64,000 bases of DNA from an uncultured Thermoanaerobaculia bacterium (GTDB taxonomy: Bacteria > Acidobacteriota > Thermoanaerobaculia > Thermoanaerobaculales > Sulfomarinibacteraceae). Shown piece by piece: positions 19,017 to 24,770 of this stretch (the first letter of the stretch is position 1; every line of letters begins with the position of its first letter). The stretch is taken from NCBI GenBank assembly GCA_964641295.1, contig CAZXNA010000001.1, positions 19,256 to 83,255 on the forward strand. The letters are read 5' to 3'. Under the pieces are notes generated by a model. It saw only the letters and a program-made list of their open reading frames with translations. It was not told the DNA's origin and did not search any database. A program made the translations under genes and the position numbers.

Positions 19017-20366
19017 TTATTTCCCAAGGCAGAAGCTGGAGAAGATGGTGTCGAGAACCTCCTCCGGGCGAACCTCACCGAGGAGTTCCCCCAGGGTTTC
19101 CAGAGCCCCCCTCATCTCCTCGACCGCCAGCTCCGGCTCATCCATGGGTGCGCGATTGACCGATTCCAACGCTCCCTCCAGCGCCGCCGCCTGACGCACG
19201 TTGACCGCAATGCGTCCCTCGCCGGGCCCGGCGTCTTCTCGCAACATGGTTTCCAGGCGCCGCTCGAAGCGCTCCCATCCCTCCCCCGTCAACGCCGACA
19301 GGGCAAGCCGCCCCTGGCCATCCTCGGGGGGCGTCCCTTCCAGGAGATCGACCTTGGTCTCCAAGAAGAGCACTGGGATTTCGGCCGGCGGGTCGATGAC
19401 GGCCCCACCCTTCTCAACCACCGACTCCAGCACCAACAACAGGTCCGCATCCTTGGCAACGTCAAGGGAGCGCCGGATTCCCTCCCGTTCCACCGGATCG
19501 TTACCGGCTCCAACGCCCGCAGTGTCCACGAGAATCACCCGAAGTCCGGCAATCTCCACCTCGGCCTCGATGAAGTCCCGTGTCGTCCCGGGATGGGGCG
19601 TGACGATGGATCGTTCCGTGCGGAGAAGTCTGTTGAACAACGTGCTCTTGCCGGCGTTGGGGGCACCCAGCAGCACCACCCGCACTCCTTCGCGAACGCG
19701 CCGGCCCAACCGGCGGGTCGCCAGGAGCGACTCCAGGGACTCGACAACGCGCCGGCGCCGCTCCTCGAGATCGGTGTAATCCACCTCGACCCCCTGCGCG
19801 GCGAAGTCCAGACCGGCCTCCAGACGCGCCACCAGATCGATCAAGCGCGCCCGCAACTCCTCCACGCGATGGGAAAGCTCTCCCCTGAGATGCCGCCGTG
19901 CCAAGGCCAGCTGGACCTTGGTTTCCGCCGCCACGAGATCGGCGACCGCCTCCGCCTGGAGCAGGTCCATCTTTCCGTTGGCGACCGCCCGGCGGGTGAA
20001 CTCACCCGGCTGGGCGAGCCGGCAGCCCACCTGGACGAACAGCTCCATGACGCTTCTCGTCAGGGCCGGCGATCCGTGGATCATCAGCTCCAGCATGTCC
20101 TCGCCCGTGTAGCTCGACGGGGCGGCGTAGGGGATGACCACGGCGCGGTCCAGGGCGGCCCCGGACGGATCCCGAAGCGCGACCAGCTGCGCCCGCCGGG
20201 GCTGTCCAAGGTCCAGGCGCGGGCAGATCCTGGCGGCAGCCCTCTCCACGCCGCGGCCACTGACCCGAACCACCGCCAGCGCCCCCTGACCTGGTGGGGT
20301 CGCCCGGGCAACGATGGTGTCAGCGCCTCCGGCGAGGTCGAACGACGACGCGTTTGATGAATCCAC
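19017..20366 (-). CDS. mnmE: tRNA modification GTPase MnmE (TrmE)
   Basis: DTIVARATPPGQGALAVVRVSG, G1 GAPNAGKSTLFN and the C-terminal CLGK motif. Confidence 0.95.
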   Translation of the reverse strand: MDSSNASSFDLAGGADTIVARATPPGQGALAVVRVSGRGVERAAARICPRLDLGQPRRAQLVALRDPSGAALDRAVVIPYAAPSSYTGEDMLELMIHGSPALTRSVMELFVQVGCRLAQPGEFTRRAVANGKMDLLQAEAVADLVAAETKVQLALARRHLRGELSHRVEELRARLIDLVARLEAGLDFAAQGVEVDYTDLEERRRRVVESLESLLATRRLGRRVREGVRVVLLGAPNAGKSTLFNRLLRTERSIVTPHPGTTRDFIEAEVEIAGLRVILVDTAGVGAGNDPVEREGIRRSLDVAKDADLLLVLESVVEKGGAVIDPPAEIPVLFLETKVDLLEGTPPEDGQGRLALSALTGEGWERFERRLETMLREDAGPGEGRIAVNVRQAAALEGALESVNRAPMDEPELAVEEMRGALETLGELLGEVRPEEVLDTIFSSFCLGK

Positions 20367-20919
20367 GGCCCTCGGACTCCGTCTCGACCCGGTCGTCTTC
20401 CGCCAGGGCCATGTGGATCTCCCGGCGGGCGGCCGGGGTCATGGGTGGCAGGGTCTGGGACCGGCCCGTGCGAACAACGCTCTCCGCTGCCTCCTCGGCC
20501 TTTCTGTGGAGGCTCCCGGCCCGCTTTTCCTTGAAGCTTCCCACGTCCACGTGGACCGGCGGATGGTCCCGCAACCTCCCGTCGAGGACCCGGTTGCAGA
20601 GATACTGAAGGCCATCAAGACCTTCTCCGCCCCGGGCGGTCAATAGGGTCGTGTCCGGACCCTCGAGATCCACGGCAAGGGTCTCGTTGCTTTCCCTCAA
20701 GTGGGCGCGAAGCTCCAGGCCTCCAGCGCGAAACGCTTCGGAAAGGAAAAGGCCCAGCGCGGCCGCCGGATCGAGGGAGGCTTCGATGGAAACAACGCCG
20801 TCACCTTCCTCGACGACCTCGTAGTGGATCTCCCCGAGACGAGCGCCGAGCCCGCTGCACGCGGCGCTGAGCACCTCGTCCAGGGTCTTGCCGGTGAAGC
20901 GCTGGGTTGCCACCGTCAC
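20320..20919 (-). CDS. jag: RNA-binding protein Jag/KhpB (Jag_N-KH-R3H)
   Basis: N-terminus FTGKTLDEVLSAAC, C-terminal R3H block PMTPAARREIHMAL...ETESEGRGFIKRVVV. Lies downstream of yidC. Confidence 0.85.
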   Translation of the reverse strand: MTVATQRFTGKTLDEVLSAACSGLGARLGEIHYEVVEEGDGVVSIEASLDPAAALGLFLSEAFRAGGLELRAHLRESNETLAVDLEGPDTTLLTARGGEGLDGLQYLCNRVLDGRLRDHPPVHVDVGSFKEKRAGSLHRKAEEAAESVVRTGRSQTLPPMTPAARREIHMALAEDDRVETESEGRGFIKRVVVRPRRRR

Positions 20920-22646
20920 TTCCTCCCCTTCCCCTTCTTCTTCGCGGATCCCCCCTTGCGCGACCCGGGAAGCTGCCGCTCACCGATCAGGTGGAGCGTC
21001 ACCTCCTGCTGGATGATGGTCAGGACGTTATTGGTCAGCCAGTAAAGGACCAGGCCCGAGGGGAAGCCCAGGAACATGATGCCGAAGATCAGGGGCATCA
21101 TGCGGAACATCTTCTGCTGGCTGGGATCTCCCGCCTGGGGCGCCAGCTTCTGCTGGAGCCACATGGTGAAGGTCATCAGGATCGGCGTGATGTAGTAGGG
21201 GTCCTTGGCGGAAAGATCCGTGATCCAGAAGATGAACGGGGCGTGCCGCAGCTCGATGGCGTAGGCGAAGAGCGTGTAGAGCGCCCAAAGGATGGGAAGC
21301 TGGATCAACATGGGTAGGCAGCCACCCATCGGGTTGACCCCCTCCACCTTGTACAGCTCCATGACCTCCTGGTTCATCTTCGCCCGAACCTGGGGGTCGC
21401 TCTTGCTCTTCTTGTACTTCTCCTGGATCGCCTTCACCTTCGGCTGGATCTTCTGCATCTTCCGCATGGACACCGTGGAAGTGTGCATCAGCGGAAAGAG
21501 CAGCATCCGGATAGCGAGCGTCAGGAGGATAATCGCCAGGCCCCAGTTTCCCACGTAAACCTGAATCCAACGAAGGACCTTGAGGAAAACCACGGAGATC
21601 GGGTGGAAGATGCCAAAGTGCAGCGTCTTCTCCACACCGCGGTCCACCTTCTGCAGCAGGTCGTACTCCTTGGGAGCCGTCAGGAGCTCCCCATGAAAGG
21701 GGTAGGACCTCGGCTTCACAAGAACCTGGAGAACCCGCCGATCCTCCTTCTTCACCTTCTTCTTGCCCTTGCCCTTGACCCCATCCTGCTCGTACACCCT
21801 GGCCTCTGGCAGCTCGAGCGGCACGATCCGCACGGCCTCGATCGACCCGGAATCCCGCATGACATCGAGGAAGTACGTGTCCTGGAACCCGGCGAAGACC
21901 AACCCCTCTCCGGAACGTTCGATGGGCTCCTTGACCTTTTTTCTCCGGAGCTTCTCGAGCTTGTCACCACTGAGGATTACGGCGTCGCCCCAGGTGGCGA
22001 AGCGATTCTCCTTTTCCACCTTGCCGATGTTCCGCATCCCCGTTCCCACGGCGACCCACGGATAACTGTCGGCCCCGTGGACCTCCACCTCGACCCCGAT
22101 GGCGTAGCTGCCCTTCTCCAGATGAATGGTCTTCACAATCTCCGTGGACCGTCCATCGGAGTACCGAGCCCGAAGAGACAGTCCGTCCACTTCAAGCTCG
22201 TAGGGCCTCGTATCAGGCCCCGCGTCCCCGACCAGCTGGAACGGCAGAGCCCGCCGAGCGAGCTTCACGTCCTGGATCAGCTCCAGCGGCCTTCCCTCAT
22301 CGTCATCGTAACGATCCAAAACCAAAGATGTTATGGCACCACCGCGACTCCCGATGACCAGGTGGACCAGTCCATTGTCCAACTCCAGACTGGACCTTCC
22401 GGTGGCGTCGGTAGCGGTTCCGATCTCTCCGCCGGTCCCGACTGCCAGCGTCTCTTCCTGCGGTCGATCTTCAGCCGCTGGACCGGCGGTTGCCTCCGAT
22501 GGGGCCGTCGGGGAAGGAGGCAACTGGGACGCCGTCGGTGTGAGGCCCGAATCCACAGGAGCCTTGGTCGGCGGGGGAAAGAGAACCGACCACACCATGA
22601 AGATCACGGCGGACAGTACGAATGCGAGGAGAAGTCTCTTTTCCAT
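20916..22646 (-). CDS. yidC: membrane protein insertase YidC (long form with periplasmic P1 domain)
   Basis: 576 aa; C-terminal 5-TM core with GNWGLAIILLTLAIRMLLFPL and GCLPMLIQLPILWALY. Confidence 0.95.
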   Translation of the reverse strand: MEKRLLLAFVLSAVIFMVWSVLFPPPTKAPVDSGLTPTASQLPPSPTAPSEATAGPAAEDRPQEETLAVGTGGEIGTATDATGRSSLELDNGLVHLVIGSRGGAITSLVLDRYDDDEGRPLELIQDVKLARRALPFQLVGDAGPDTRPYELEVDGLSLRARYSDGRSTEIVKTIHLEKGSYAIGVEVEVHGADSYPWVAVGTGMRNIGKVEKENRFATWGDAVILSGDKLEKLRRKKVKEPIERSGEGLVFAGFQDTYFLDVMRDSGSIEAVRIVPLELPEARVYEQDGVKGKGKKKVKKEDRRVLQVLVKPRSYPFHGELLTAPKEYDLLQKVDRGVEKTLHFGIFHPISVVFLKVLRWIQVYVGNWGLAIILLTLAIRMLLFPLMHTSTVSMRKMQKIQPKVKAIQEKYKKSKSDPQVRAKMNQEVMELYKVEGVNPMGGCLPMLIQLPILWALYTLFAYAIELRHAPFIFWITDLSAKDPYYITPILMTFTMWLQQKLAPQAGDPSQQKMFRMMPLIFGIMFLGFPSGLVLYWLTNNVLTIIQQEVTLHLIGERQLPGSRKGGSAKKKGKGRK

Positions 22647-22655
22647 TCTCTGGCG

Positions 22656-23360
22656 CTACTTCCTTTCACGGTACGGGATCGTGGCCCCCGGGGTGGAAGG
22701 GGTGGCAGCGTAGCACGCGCTTAAGACCCATCCACCCGCCCCGGAAGAACCCGTACTTCCCAATGGCCTCCGCAGTGTACTCCGAGCAGGTCGGCTGGTA
22801 CCGGCACGCCGGCGGAAGCGCCGGCGAGATCCACCGCTTGTAGAACCGGAGGAGCCAGACGGCTGCCCGAGCTCCAGCTCCAACTCCCTCAGACACCGAA
22901 GATACTCCGCCACAAGCTCGGCCCACGGCACGCGGTCGAGCCCCTTCCTGGCGTTGACGACCAGGTCGATTCCCGTTCCCTCCACACCTCCGTATAGCCG
23001 CTGAAGCTCCCGCAGACGCCGCTTGCACCGTGACCGGCGCACAGCTCCACCGACCTTCCGAGAGGCGGTGATACCGAAACGGTTTTCACGGGATTCATCC
23101 TCCCGCCGGCATGCGAAGACAACCATCCACCGGCCGTGCACACGCCGACCCCGCCGGTAGACCTTTTGGAAATCCCGGCTTTGCCGAAGGCGCGCCGTAC
23201 CGCTGAAGCTCCGCCGGCTCAGGCGGCCAGGCGCCGACGCCCCTTGCGGCGCCGTGCGGCCAGGATCTTCCGCCCGTTGCGGGTGCGCATCCGCGCACGA
23301 AAGCCGTGTTTCTTGCTCCGGCGCCTGTTGTTTGGTTGAAACGTCCTCTTCATGGTTCAT
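22656..23360 (-). CDS. rnpA: RNase P protein component (boundaries unusual: the frame is open across rpmH upstream and yidD downstream)
   Basis: Core [28 protein letters not shown]...[22 protein letters not shown] (RNR-type basic motif). There is no ATG/GTG/TTG in frame between ATG 23360 and the conserved N-terminal block (only a CTG at ~23219). The first in-frame stop is at 22656. Confidence 0.6.
22666..22896 (-). CDS. yidD: membrane protein insertion efficiency factor YidD
   Basis: ORF 22666..23028 trimmed to GTG 22896. Signature [35 protein letters not shown]. Lies entirely inside the still-open rnpA frame. Confidence 0.8.
23219..23353 (-). CDS. rpmH: 50S ribosomal protein L34
   Basis: Too short for the ORF track. 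Minus strand from ATG 23353 reads [44 protein letters not shown] then TGA. Confidence 0.95.
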
Positions 23361-23385
23361 CACTCTCCAAAAACTCGGGCGGGTC

Positions 23386-23414
23386 ACCTTACCCGAAGGG
23401 GTGTCGCGTGTCAA
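23386..23414 (-). promoter_or_regulatory. sigma70-like promoter for rpmH-rnpA
   Basis: Minus strand reads TTGACA (23414..23409), 17 nt, TAAGGT (23391..23386). Confidence 0.5.
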
Positions 23415-23477
23415 CCTCCCCTTGGTGCCGCTGGAAGACCCTCCCCGAAAAAAAACATGATAACCTTCTACGTTGTC

Positions 23478-24770
23478 ATGGACCAGTGGAGCTCACTTCA
23501 ACCTCATCTGCGGCAAATGCTCGGCGACGACGAGTACGCGACCTGGATTGCCCCCCTCGAGGTCATCGCCATCAACGAGGACTCCATCGTCCTTGGAAGC
23601 TCTAACAAGATCGTCGCCGACTGGGTCCGCGACCATCTCCTCCGGGATATCCAAACGGTCGCCAGAAGCCAGTTCGGGTCCTCCTTCAACATTCGCTTCG
23701 TCACCGATGGCTCACCAAGCCAGCCCGCCAAGCGAAGCGCGGCGACGTCCAGCATCCCTAACCTCAATCCCAACTTCACTTTTGAACGCTTTGTCATCGG
23801 CCCTTCCAACCAGTTCGCTGCTGCTGCAGCCGAGGCCGTCGCGGACAAACCAGGTGAGGCCTACAACCCGCTTTTCATTTACGGCGGGGCGGGCCTGGGA
23901 AAGACCCACCTTCTCCACGCCATCGCCCATCGCATCGCCGAAAAGCATCACGACCTCAACCACATCGTCTACATGACGACCGAACATTTCGTCAACGACC
24001 TGATCAACTGCATCCGTCATAAGCGCATGGATGAGTTTCGATCCAAGCTCAGGGCCTGTGACGTACTTCTCCTGGACGATATCCAGTTCATCGCGGGAAA
24101 GGAAAGAACCCAGGAGGAGTTCTTTCACACCTTCAACACGCTTCAATCGGCGGGACGTCAGGTGGTCTTCACCTCCGACTCCAGGCCCGCCAACATTCCG
24201 GGCCTCGAGGATCGTCTCCGTTCCCGTTTCCTCCAGGGTCTCCTCGCCGACATCCAGCCGCCCGATCTCGAGACTCGCTGCGCCATCCTACGGGAGAAGG
24301 CGCGGGCCGCCGGTTGGCAACTCCCCGAAGACGTCGTTCTTTTCATCTCCCGCCGCGTTCAGAAGAACGTTCGTGAGCTCGAAGGCTGCCTCAACCGCAC
24401 CATCGCCTACGCCCAGCTGACAACCAACCCCATCACCGTCGACCTGGTTCGGACCGCCCTCGCCGAACTGATGCCGGAGGAGAGAAGAACCTCGCCCGCC
24501 GACATCATCCGCTTCGTCGCCCACCACTACGGCGTTCGCGTCGCCGACCTCAAGGGACGCTCCAACCGCCGTTCCATCGCCCTGCCCCGCCAGGTCGCCA
24601 TGTACCTCATCCGGACCATCCTCCACCTGAGCTTTCCGGAGATCGGCAAGATCTTCTCCAAGCACCACTCCACCGTCATTTACGCCGTGGACTCCGTTCA
24701 AAAGGCCCGTCAGTCCAACCCTGATTTTGACGCGACCCTGACCTCCTTCCAGGACCATTTCGCCGCCTGA
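23478..24770 (+). CDS. dnaA: chromosomal replication initiator DnaA
   Basis: ORF 23352..24770 trimmed to MDQWSSLQPHLRQMLGDDEYATWIAPL (alternative ATG at 23457). AAA+ Walker A GGAGLGKTHLLHAI; C-terminal DNA-binding helix KHHSTVIYAV. Confidence 0.95.
   Translation: MDQWSSLQPHLRQMLGDDEYATWIAPLEVIAINEDSIVLGSSNKIVADWVRDHLLRDIQTVARSQFGSSFNIRFVTDGSPSQPAKRSAATSSIPNLNPNFTFERFVIGPSNQFAAAAAEAVADKPGEAYNPLFIYGGAGLGKTHLLHAIAHRIAEKHHDLNHIVYMTTEHFVNDLINCIRHKRMDEFRSKLRACDVLLLDDIQFIAGKERTQEEFFHTFNTLQSAGRQVVFTSDSRPANIPGLEDRLRSRFLQGLLADIQPPDLETRCAILREKARAAGWQLPEDVVLFISRRVQKNVRELEGCLNRTIAYAQLTTNPITVDLVRTALAELMPEERRTSPADIIRFVAHHYGVRVADLKGRSNRRSIALPRQVAMYLIRTILHLSFPEIGKIFSKHHSTVIYAVDSVQKARQSNPDFDATLTSFQDHFAA

Follow-up and report, generated by a model that had tools for sequence, protein, structure and literature searches.

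A putative Thermus-type nesting of rpmH in rnpA, with an rnpA frame that continues through yidD, in an uncultured Thermoanaerobaculia bacterium

In Thermus, rpmH, which encodes ribosomal protein L34, is fully nested in rnpA, which codes for the RNase P protein. As related in the part of PMC9841429 that cites Feltens et al. 2003, the two genes start at AUGGAUG behind one GGAGG Shine-Dalgarno sequence, and both proteins are expressed. The same paper, from 2022, states that, in bacteria, no genes other than Thermus rnpA and rpmH have been described to share one initiation site. Here we report a locus that appears to follow the same plan in an uncultured Thermoanaerobaculia bacterium. It lies on the minus strand of a 64,000-nucleotide (nt) stretch of contig CAZXNA010000001.1 (assembly GCA_964641295.1), which we call the window and whose positions are used throughout. 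From an ATG placed 7 nt before that of rpmH, the rnpA frame stays open across all of rpmH, encodes the RnpA core, and then remains open across all of yidD. We favour, with moderate confidence, a Thermus-type nested rpmH/rnpA arrangement with initiation at two AUGs, combined with the loss of the rnpA stop codon. The Acidobacteriota, to which the window belongs, are a second phylum for the nested arrangement, which is otherwise known only from Thermus, a member of the Deinococcota.

Thermus and the window have three traits in common. In both, rnpA is extended at its N-terminal end, is read in the -1 frame of rpmH and encloses that gene completely; two AUGs stand a few nucleotides apart behind a single Shine-Dalgarno sequence; and the extension is an out-of-frame reading of a very basic protein. 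They differ in that the starts are 7 nt apart here (ATGNNNNATG) and 4 nt apart in the AUGGAUG of Thermus, and in that the Shine-Dalgarno sequence is GGAGAG here and GGAGG there. Moreover, a CTG remains in the window at the site of the ancestral coupled start, and rnpA has lost its stop and runs through a second nested gene, yidD. Expression is proven in Thermus, whereas the present locus is known from its sequence alone. A more distant parallel is found in the AUGUG and GUGUG sites of pqiA, tamA and narQ of Escherichia coli, where close out-of-frame starts likewise compete for initiation complexes (PMC9841429). At those sites, however, the starts overlap and the alternative open reading frames (ORFs) are short or of unknown function, whereas here both frames encode essential, conserved proteins.

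In other respects the locus is a canonical rpmH-rnpA-yidD-yidC operon. Five loci from other Acidobacteria (L014, L016, L018, L019 and L021; group C below) have the same gene order and the same divergent dnaA neighbour. The RnpA core lies at the same distance from the rpmH stop, and yidD starts within the 3' end of rnpA in the same frame relation. They differ from the window's clade at the end of rpmH, where their rnpA starts at a GTG that overlaps the rpmH stop (GTGA) and occupies the position of the window's CTG.

A candidate start codon upstream of rpmH and an open frame across it

The minus-strand ORF covers 22656..23414 and comprises 252 aa when counted from TTG 23414 and 234 aa from ATG 23360. 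Its residues 71–178 (22881..23204, minus strand) form the RnpA core domain, which matches PF00825 with 87.2 bits (cut-off 22.3) over profile positions 2–108 of 109 and TIGR00188 with 59.6 bits (cut-off 38.35). Read from ATG 23360, the long rnpA ORF (22656..23360, minus strand; 234 codons plus TAG) consists of an N-terminal extension (residues 1–46), the RnpA core (residues ∼ 47–165) and a C-terminal tail (residues 166–234). Its size is thus atypical: 234 aa from the ATG, or 188 aa from the CTG at the end of rpmH, against ∼ 110–125 aa for a typical RnpA, the excess being the extension over rpmH plus the tail over yidD. The gene rpmH itself (23219..23353, minus strand) has its own ATG and encodes an L34 of 44 aa with matches above cut-off to PF00468 (74.9 bits) and TIGR01030 (73.3 bits), spanning positions 1–44 of 44. 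Since its ATG lies 7 nt downstream of ATG 23360 (ATGAACCATGAAG), the rnpA frame is the -1 frame of rpmH; the rnpA ORF contains all of rpmH.

The start region, GGAGAGTG-ATG-AACC-ATG at 23368..23351, places one Shine-Dalgarno sequence ahead of both start codons. From the end of this single Shine-Dalgarno-like GGAGAG (23363..23368, minus strand), it is 2 nt to ATG 23360 and 9 nt to ATG 23353 of rpmH; from its GGAG core, the distances are 4 and 11 nt, respectively. The candidate rnpA start at -7 relative to the rpmH ATG (23358..23360, minus strand) is preceded by an in-frame GTG (23363..23361). Further upstream, a promoter-like motif for the rpmH-rnpA-yidD-yidC transcript occupies 23386..23414 on the minus strand (TTGACA at 23414..23409, a 17-nt spacer and TAAGGT at 23391..23386). 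The consensus promoter scan makes no call on this motif because its -10 element matches at only 3 of 6 positions. The support for a promoter is conservation: the -35 hexamer and a TAnnnT -10 element are kept, with a variable spacer, in the close relatives L161–L167 and L001. Given the position of this putative promoter, the upstream in-frame TTG 23414 would lie outside the mRNA. The Rfam scan of 22300..23800 gave no match, and the folding of the leader RNA did not differ from that of shuffled sequences (z = -0.53).

Genome hits assign the window to uncultured Acidobacteriota of the Thermoanaerobaculia type. For comparison, 169 loci were gathered; rpmH, the RnpA core and yidD were located in them with phmmer, and their frames were then compared. 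Four rpmH–rnpA arrangements were seen: groups A, B and C, and loci without a canonical rnpA start. Group A consists of the window and 15 other non-redundant Thermoanaerobaculia-like lineages, all with rnpA in the -1 frame of rpmH and with RnpA-core scores that span 246 to 66. In 16 of 16, an ATG (GTG in L092) stands exactly 7 nt before the rpmH ATG. The leader GGAG(A/T/C)GTG-ATG-NNNN-ATG is conserved, while the 4 nt between the two starts are variable (aacc, aacg, gaca, catt, gatc, tatt, tgtt, cacc). Most members of the clade have no canonical start after rpmH. Group B (Sulfomarinibacteraceae-like; e.g. L004, L007, L010, L012 and L099) is closely related to the window and resembles it in leader style and in the tight linkage of rpmH to rnpA. 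There, however, rnpA is in the +1 frame of rpmH. Its start is a conserved TTG located 8 nt ahead of the rpmH stop, which gives an 11-nt overlap; yidD is not adjacent, and the long extension is lacking. Some group B loci have an in-frame ATG at +46 inside rpmH.

The preliminary description of this DNA cautioned that open frames arise by chance, and for a single genome the caution was right. When synonymous codons were permuted with the L34 and YidD proteins held fixed, the rnpA frame of the window was open over rpmH with P = 0.38. Over yidD, the corresponding probability was 0.31 with genome codon usage and 0.64 with permutation within the gene. The -1 frame of rpmH is also open in unrelated high-GC bacteria, e.g. 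Brevundimonas, where an ordinary ATG follows rpmH. On account of the permutation values, the openness of the frame in one genome was rejected as evidence for either overlap.

Across lineages, no stop interrupts the frame between the -7 start and the RnpA core in any of the 16 that have this start, for a per-lineage permutation expectation of 0.04–0.90 (median ∼ 0.4). Lineages with rnpA outside the -1 frame of rpmH served as unbiased controls. Their -1 frame is stop-free in 9 of the 24 nearest and in 16/36 overall, in agreement with the simulated 0.38, versus 16/16 in group A (Fisher p = 3.6e-5). We also scored the third positions of rpmH codons at which a T would create a stop in the -1 frame. 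Group A has T at none of 117 such risk sites, versus 73 of 407 sites without that risk. T is found at risk sites in group B (21/162) and in same-frame controls (12/330). The risk columns hold A, G and C in group A, never T, and T does occur in them in group B.

The amino acids of the extension are under no comparable constraint. Fourfold sites of rpmH differ by 0.596 per pair in group A, which is 0.91 of the rate of the RnpA core (0.77 in group B). Conservation of the N-terminal extension at the protein level was considered and rejected, as fourfold-site divergence in group A is not below that of group B. Given the otherwise free variation at synonymous sites of rpmH, the frame of the extension is maintained open without conservation of the encoded protein. 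The preliminary description had left open whether the extensions are conserved or only kept open, to be decided by alignment and by a check of synonymous sites: the N-terminal one is kept open, and neither is conserved as protein. By these sequence comparisons, the rpmH part of the overlap is more than chance across relatives and the yidD part is not, and the N-terminal overlap is probably functional.

Both extensions might nevertheless be accidents of a high-GC genome that have no consequence for the organism, the long ORF being a gene-caller artefact and the real RnpA a protein of ∼ 120 aa. The single-genome probabilities given above would fit such an accident, and so would the open -1 frame of Brevundimonas, the lack of protein-level conservation in the extensions and their predicted disorder. 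However, an RnpA of normal length would have no canonical start and no stop for its normal C-terminus; owing to the missing stop, ribosomes must read to 22656 whichever start they use. On the N-terminal side, the comparison among lineages also speaks against pure chance, since stops are avoided and the -7 ATG is retained. We regard the accident explanation as very improbable.

The predicted disorder comes from AlphaFold2. In the model, residues ∼ 55–165 have a pLDDT (predicted local distance difference test) score of 88–98, and residues 1–51 and 166–234 have scores of 40–53 and no secondary structure; both extensions of RnpA are thus predicted to be disordered. The net charge is -3 for the N-terminal extension and +12 for the tail. 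In a Foldseek search, the core matched the RNase P proteins of Staphylococcus aureus, Thermotoga maritima, Bacillus subtilis and E. coli with E values of 9e-10 to 2e-5. Template modelling (TM) scores of the core, normalized to the target, were 0.63–0.81 against solved RNase P proteins of 107–123 aa; TM values of 0.72–0.81 were also recorded for the core against such proteins.

The CTG at the end of rpmH

In the rnpA frame of the window, no ATG, GTG or TTG is present from 23360 to the RnpA core. The sole NTG codon is a CTG (23220..23222, minus strand) that overlaps the rpmH stop as CTGA. The window thus lacks the canonical coupled junction, in which an ATG, GTG or TTG coincides with the rpmH stop or directly follows it, and has this CTG in its place. 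RnpA made from the CTG would have an N-terminus of typical length. The preliminary description named the CTG as the only alternative start, and it is more than a minor one. Because the codon occupies the ancestral start position (GTGA elsewhere) and because no other start is available in L090 and L093, it is a serious rival of, or a second route beside, the -7 ATG.

Several relatives bear on this point. Of two sister lineages, L090 carries AGG in place of the -7 start as well as a stop within rpmH, and L093 carries TAG at -10; the RnpA core is still intact in each, and CTG (in CTGA) is the only start available. Four Thermoanaerobaculaceae loci (L029, L031, L153 and L159) have only a CTG in the context GGGGG-N4-CTG, and L037 has only a CTG. 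In these Acidobacteriota loci, no ATG, GTG or TTG was found from the last in-frame stop to the RnpA core. Judged from these sequences, the essential rnpA of this class seems to use CUG starts. Several lineages would then have an essential gene without a canonical start codon. The coordinates of such start-less rnpA genes are L090:859-1266, L093:318-929, L029:2471-2836 and L037:2543-3022. Among the Geminicoccaceae and Caulobacteraceae, three loci (L047, L061 and L080) likewise have no canonical start between rpmH and the RnpA core, and only CTG or ATC is available. Start-less rnpA genes may therefore be wider spread than the Acidobacteriota.

These loci raise the question of whether the window's RnpA starts only at CTG 23222..23220, by low-efficiency reinitiation after L34. 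The product would be 188 aa long and would retain the tail, and the -7 ATG would be unproductive, for example as a conserved element of the region in which rpmH translation initiates, or as a decoy. The homology of the CTG to the GTG of the GTGA overlaps in other Acidobacteria argues for this possibility, as do the typical N-terminal length and the seven loci with CTG only, in four of which (L029, L031, L153 and L159) the CTG follows a Shine-Dalgarno-like run. A weak start would not be unusual either: rnpA start codons are often weak, and RnpA is ∼ 130-fold rarer than L34 in E. coli (PMC9945441). However, a start at the CTG alone leaves unexplained why the -7 ATG or GTG is retained amid varying neighbours and why stops in the -1 frame are avoided in 16 of 16 lineages (none at 117 risk sites). 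Nor is the window's CTG preceded by a purine-rich Shine-Dalgarno sequence 5–10 nt upstream. In L008 the rpmH stop is TAA, so that the junction codon is CTA. Furthermore, initiation at CUG in E. coli has ∼ 1% or less of the efficiency of AUG. Taken together, we consider exclusive use of the CTG unlikely, although it is a live rival of the Thermus-like reading, which the sequence comparison supports for the N-terminal side.

Two further candidate lines of evidence on the CTG were discarded. The conserved C of the CTG was rejected as evidence for a start there, since the same C is equally conserved in group B, where it stands in a different frame and a start is impossible; its conservation is therefore explained by a preference for GCC and GTC codons. 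The CUG of Caulobacter dnaA (PMC8443254) was set aside as a parallel, as that CUG is not used in vivo.

Several observations weigh against dual-AUG initiation and temper the confidence that we place in it. The p-values given above are optimistic, because the lineages are phylogenetically related. Measured against the same-frame controls, a set with a bias in favour of open frames, stop avoidance reaches only p = 0.007–0.04. Some lineages with the -7 ATG also hold a canonical start just past rpmH, either as TGATG (the L083 type) or as a GTG at +5 (the L002 type). As described, L090, L093 and the four Thermoanaerobaculaceae loci make the CTG appear to be a functional start of rnpA in this class. 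A neighbour-joining tree of L34 plus the RnpA core was too poorly resolved to decide between a single and several origins of the -7 ATG. Finally, a well-placed ATG on the Shine-Dalgarno sequence of L34 might over-produce RnpA, given the scarcity of RnpA relative to L34 in E. coli.

The L083 type was seen in five metagenome loci (L083, L087, L088, L089 and L091), which combine the -7 ATG and the open frame with a TGATG junction, the ATG lying 2 nt after the rpmH stop. This combination suggests that the subgroup could make RnpA in both a long and a short form.

The tail over yidD

The gene yidD (membrane protein insertion efficiency factor; 22666..22896, minus strand) encodes 76 aa from a GTG and matches PF01809 with 108 bits and TIGR00278 with 92.8 bits, both above cut-off. 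It has its own start codon and its own Shine-Dalgarno sequence, GGAG at 22905..22908 (minus strand), 8 nt upstream of GTG 22896 and within the coding sequence of rnpA. In relatives, the yidD start is kept as GTG or ATG with GGAG or GGAGGA 8–10 nt upstream. The gene is fully nested in the rnpA-frame tail, and the rnpA frame is its +1 frame. The tail (22656..22865, minus strand) comprises 69 aa with 13 K/R and 1 D/E. It ends at the first stop of the rnpA frame, TAG 22658..22656; the yidD stop is 10 nt upstream of this TAG, and the ATG of yidC (22646) is 9 nt downstream.

In 51 of 51 non-redundant same-frame controls, the rnpA stop falls in the range from -95 to +16 nt relative to YidD alignment position 1, and in all but L035 in that from -47 to +16. 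The window's clade, unlike these controls, has no rnpA stop for 106–208 nt past that position: its 17 non-redundant lineages stop at +106, +118, +121, +142 or +208, corresponding to tails of ∼ 35–69 aa. The stops arise where an L, M or V of YidD precedes a codon that begins with A, and they coincide with the hot spots of +1-frame stops in control lineages. The mean number of +1-frame stops over yidD is 1.0 in the clade and 1.5 in the controls, with none in 5/17 and 7/51, respectively. Selection that holds the yidD overlap open was rejected, as positions and densities of stops match the controls. In two clade members without an adjacent yidD (P0012 and P0013), RnpA ends a few residues after the core. 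Thus, the preliminary description's comparison with Thermus, extended by a yidD overlap, stands for the nesting of rpmH, with its conserved -7 start and stop avoidance, and not for the overlap with yidD as a selected extension, of which there is no sign. The alignments suggest that the tail is probably a by-product of one ancestral loss of the rnpA stop, its length being set by the YidD sequence.

Might the Arg-rich tail itself be selected, either as an extra RNA-binding arm or through termination 9 nt before yidC, which would couple the two genes? The loss of the stop is old and stable: in the variable linker upstream of +106, a stop has reappeared in none of 17 non-redundant lineages. The proximal part of the tail is strongly basic (13 K/R vs 1 D/E), and five non-redundant full-length tails, from seven loci, share one stop just before yidC. 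However, tail length varies among the five classes listed above, and the stops fall at hot spots determined by YidD at a density (1.0 vs 1.5) close to that of the controls. P0012 and P0013 do without the tail where yidD is not adjacent, and no structure is predicted for it. The conservation of its proximal part is fully explained by YidD, whose conserved N-terminal half imposes it. Selection on the tail is accordingly an idea to which we give little credence.

The preliminary description asked whether an indel near 22890-22900, arising in sequencing or assembly, had removed the true rnpA stop, and we found no support for this. A TGA is present in the third frame (ggtgtcTGAgg). Two other assemblies (Logan SRR5189949 and JGI 3300023507), however, match the window with 100% identity over 1705 nt, and 17 non-redundant relatives share its frame relation and likewise lack the stop. 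The C-terminal helix of the AlphaFold2 model also continues through this region in the rnpA frame. Because of the identical assemblies and the frame relation shared by relatives, such an indel is effectively excluded. The other statements of the preliminary description about the sequence (ORF, rpmH, RnpA frame, yidD, start codons and promoter motif) were all confirmed.

Expression of the operon and neighbouring genes

Under dual-AUG initiation, one promoter would yield an mRNA with a short leader and the single Shine-Dalgarno sequence GGAGAG. Bound ribosomes would choose between ATG 23360 in the rnpA frame and ATG 23353 of rpmH, 7 nt apart. Those starting at 23360 would read rpmH in its -1 frame, giving a mildly acidic, disordered leader of 46 aa, and continue into the RnpA core. 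They would then cross yidD in its +1 frame and add a disordered, Arg-rich tail of 69 aa before reaching TAG 22656. They would read all of yidD because rnpA no longer has its ancestral stop, which lay close to the beginning of yidD. L34 and YidD would be made from their own start codons, in the case of YidD by means of the GGAG 8 nt upstream of its GTG. Selection would hold the N-terminal frame stop-free with its amino acids unconstrained, and the C-terminal tail would be tolerated. The CTG at the rpmH stop may yield a second, shorter RnpA by termination–reinitiation. We infer from the sequence the initiation at ATG 23360, the sharing of the Shine-Dalgarno sequence and any use of the CTG.

A bolder version can be formulated: three proteins are encoded in 705 nt, partition between the AUGs sets the L34:RnpA ratio, CUG reinitiation gives an additional isoform, and both extensions function in RNase P (as an autoinhibitory or RNA-binding pair, or by coupling rnpA to yidC), the whole having evolved independently and being more extreme than in Thermus. 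We consider this conjunction distinctly unlikely.

A second, phylogenetically independent clade with at least 16 diverged lineages would allow tests of whether partitioning between dual starts links the production of ribosomes and RNase P, and of how overprinted frames stay open without conservation. It would also allow tests of how start sites migrate between GTGA, CTGA plus an upstream ATG, and an internal TTG.

The locus is also informative for annotation. The 234-aa protein is present in public collections (P0001), and gene callers choose ATG 23360 as its start. In the public gene calls of L161–L169, only the long rnpA ORF is given, with rpmH and yidD omitted; the calls for L166 include a 31-aa fragment of YidD. 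Since gene callers give the long ORF only, L34 and YidD would be missing from annotations of metagenome-assembled genomes of this clade.

Upstream of rpmH, the divergent dnaA (23457..24770, plus strand) probably starts at ATG 23457 and encodes 437 aa; dnaA of relatives is called at 430–437 aa. The mechanical dnaA ORF (23352..24770, plus strand) begins at ATG 23352, within the rpmH region of the opposite strand. The likely true start is ATG 23457 (MITFYVV..., 437 aa) or the next ATG (MDQW..., 430 aa), which would leave a divergent promoter region of ∼ 100 bp between dnaA and rpmH. On the other side, yidC (20916..22646, minus strand; PF02096 and PF14849) is the next gene of the operon. A 413-aa ORF (21483..22724, plus strand) is antisense to yidC and yidD and is probably not a gene, since long antisense open frames are expected at a GC content of ∼ 0.83 at third codon positions. 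Finally, a 199-aa ORF (20320..20919, minus strand) overlaps the yidC stop by 4 nt, and its position suggests the Jag/KhpB-like gene that is usual there.

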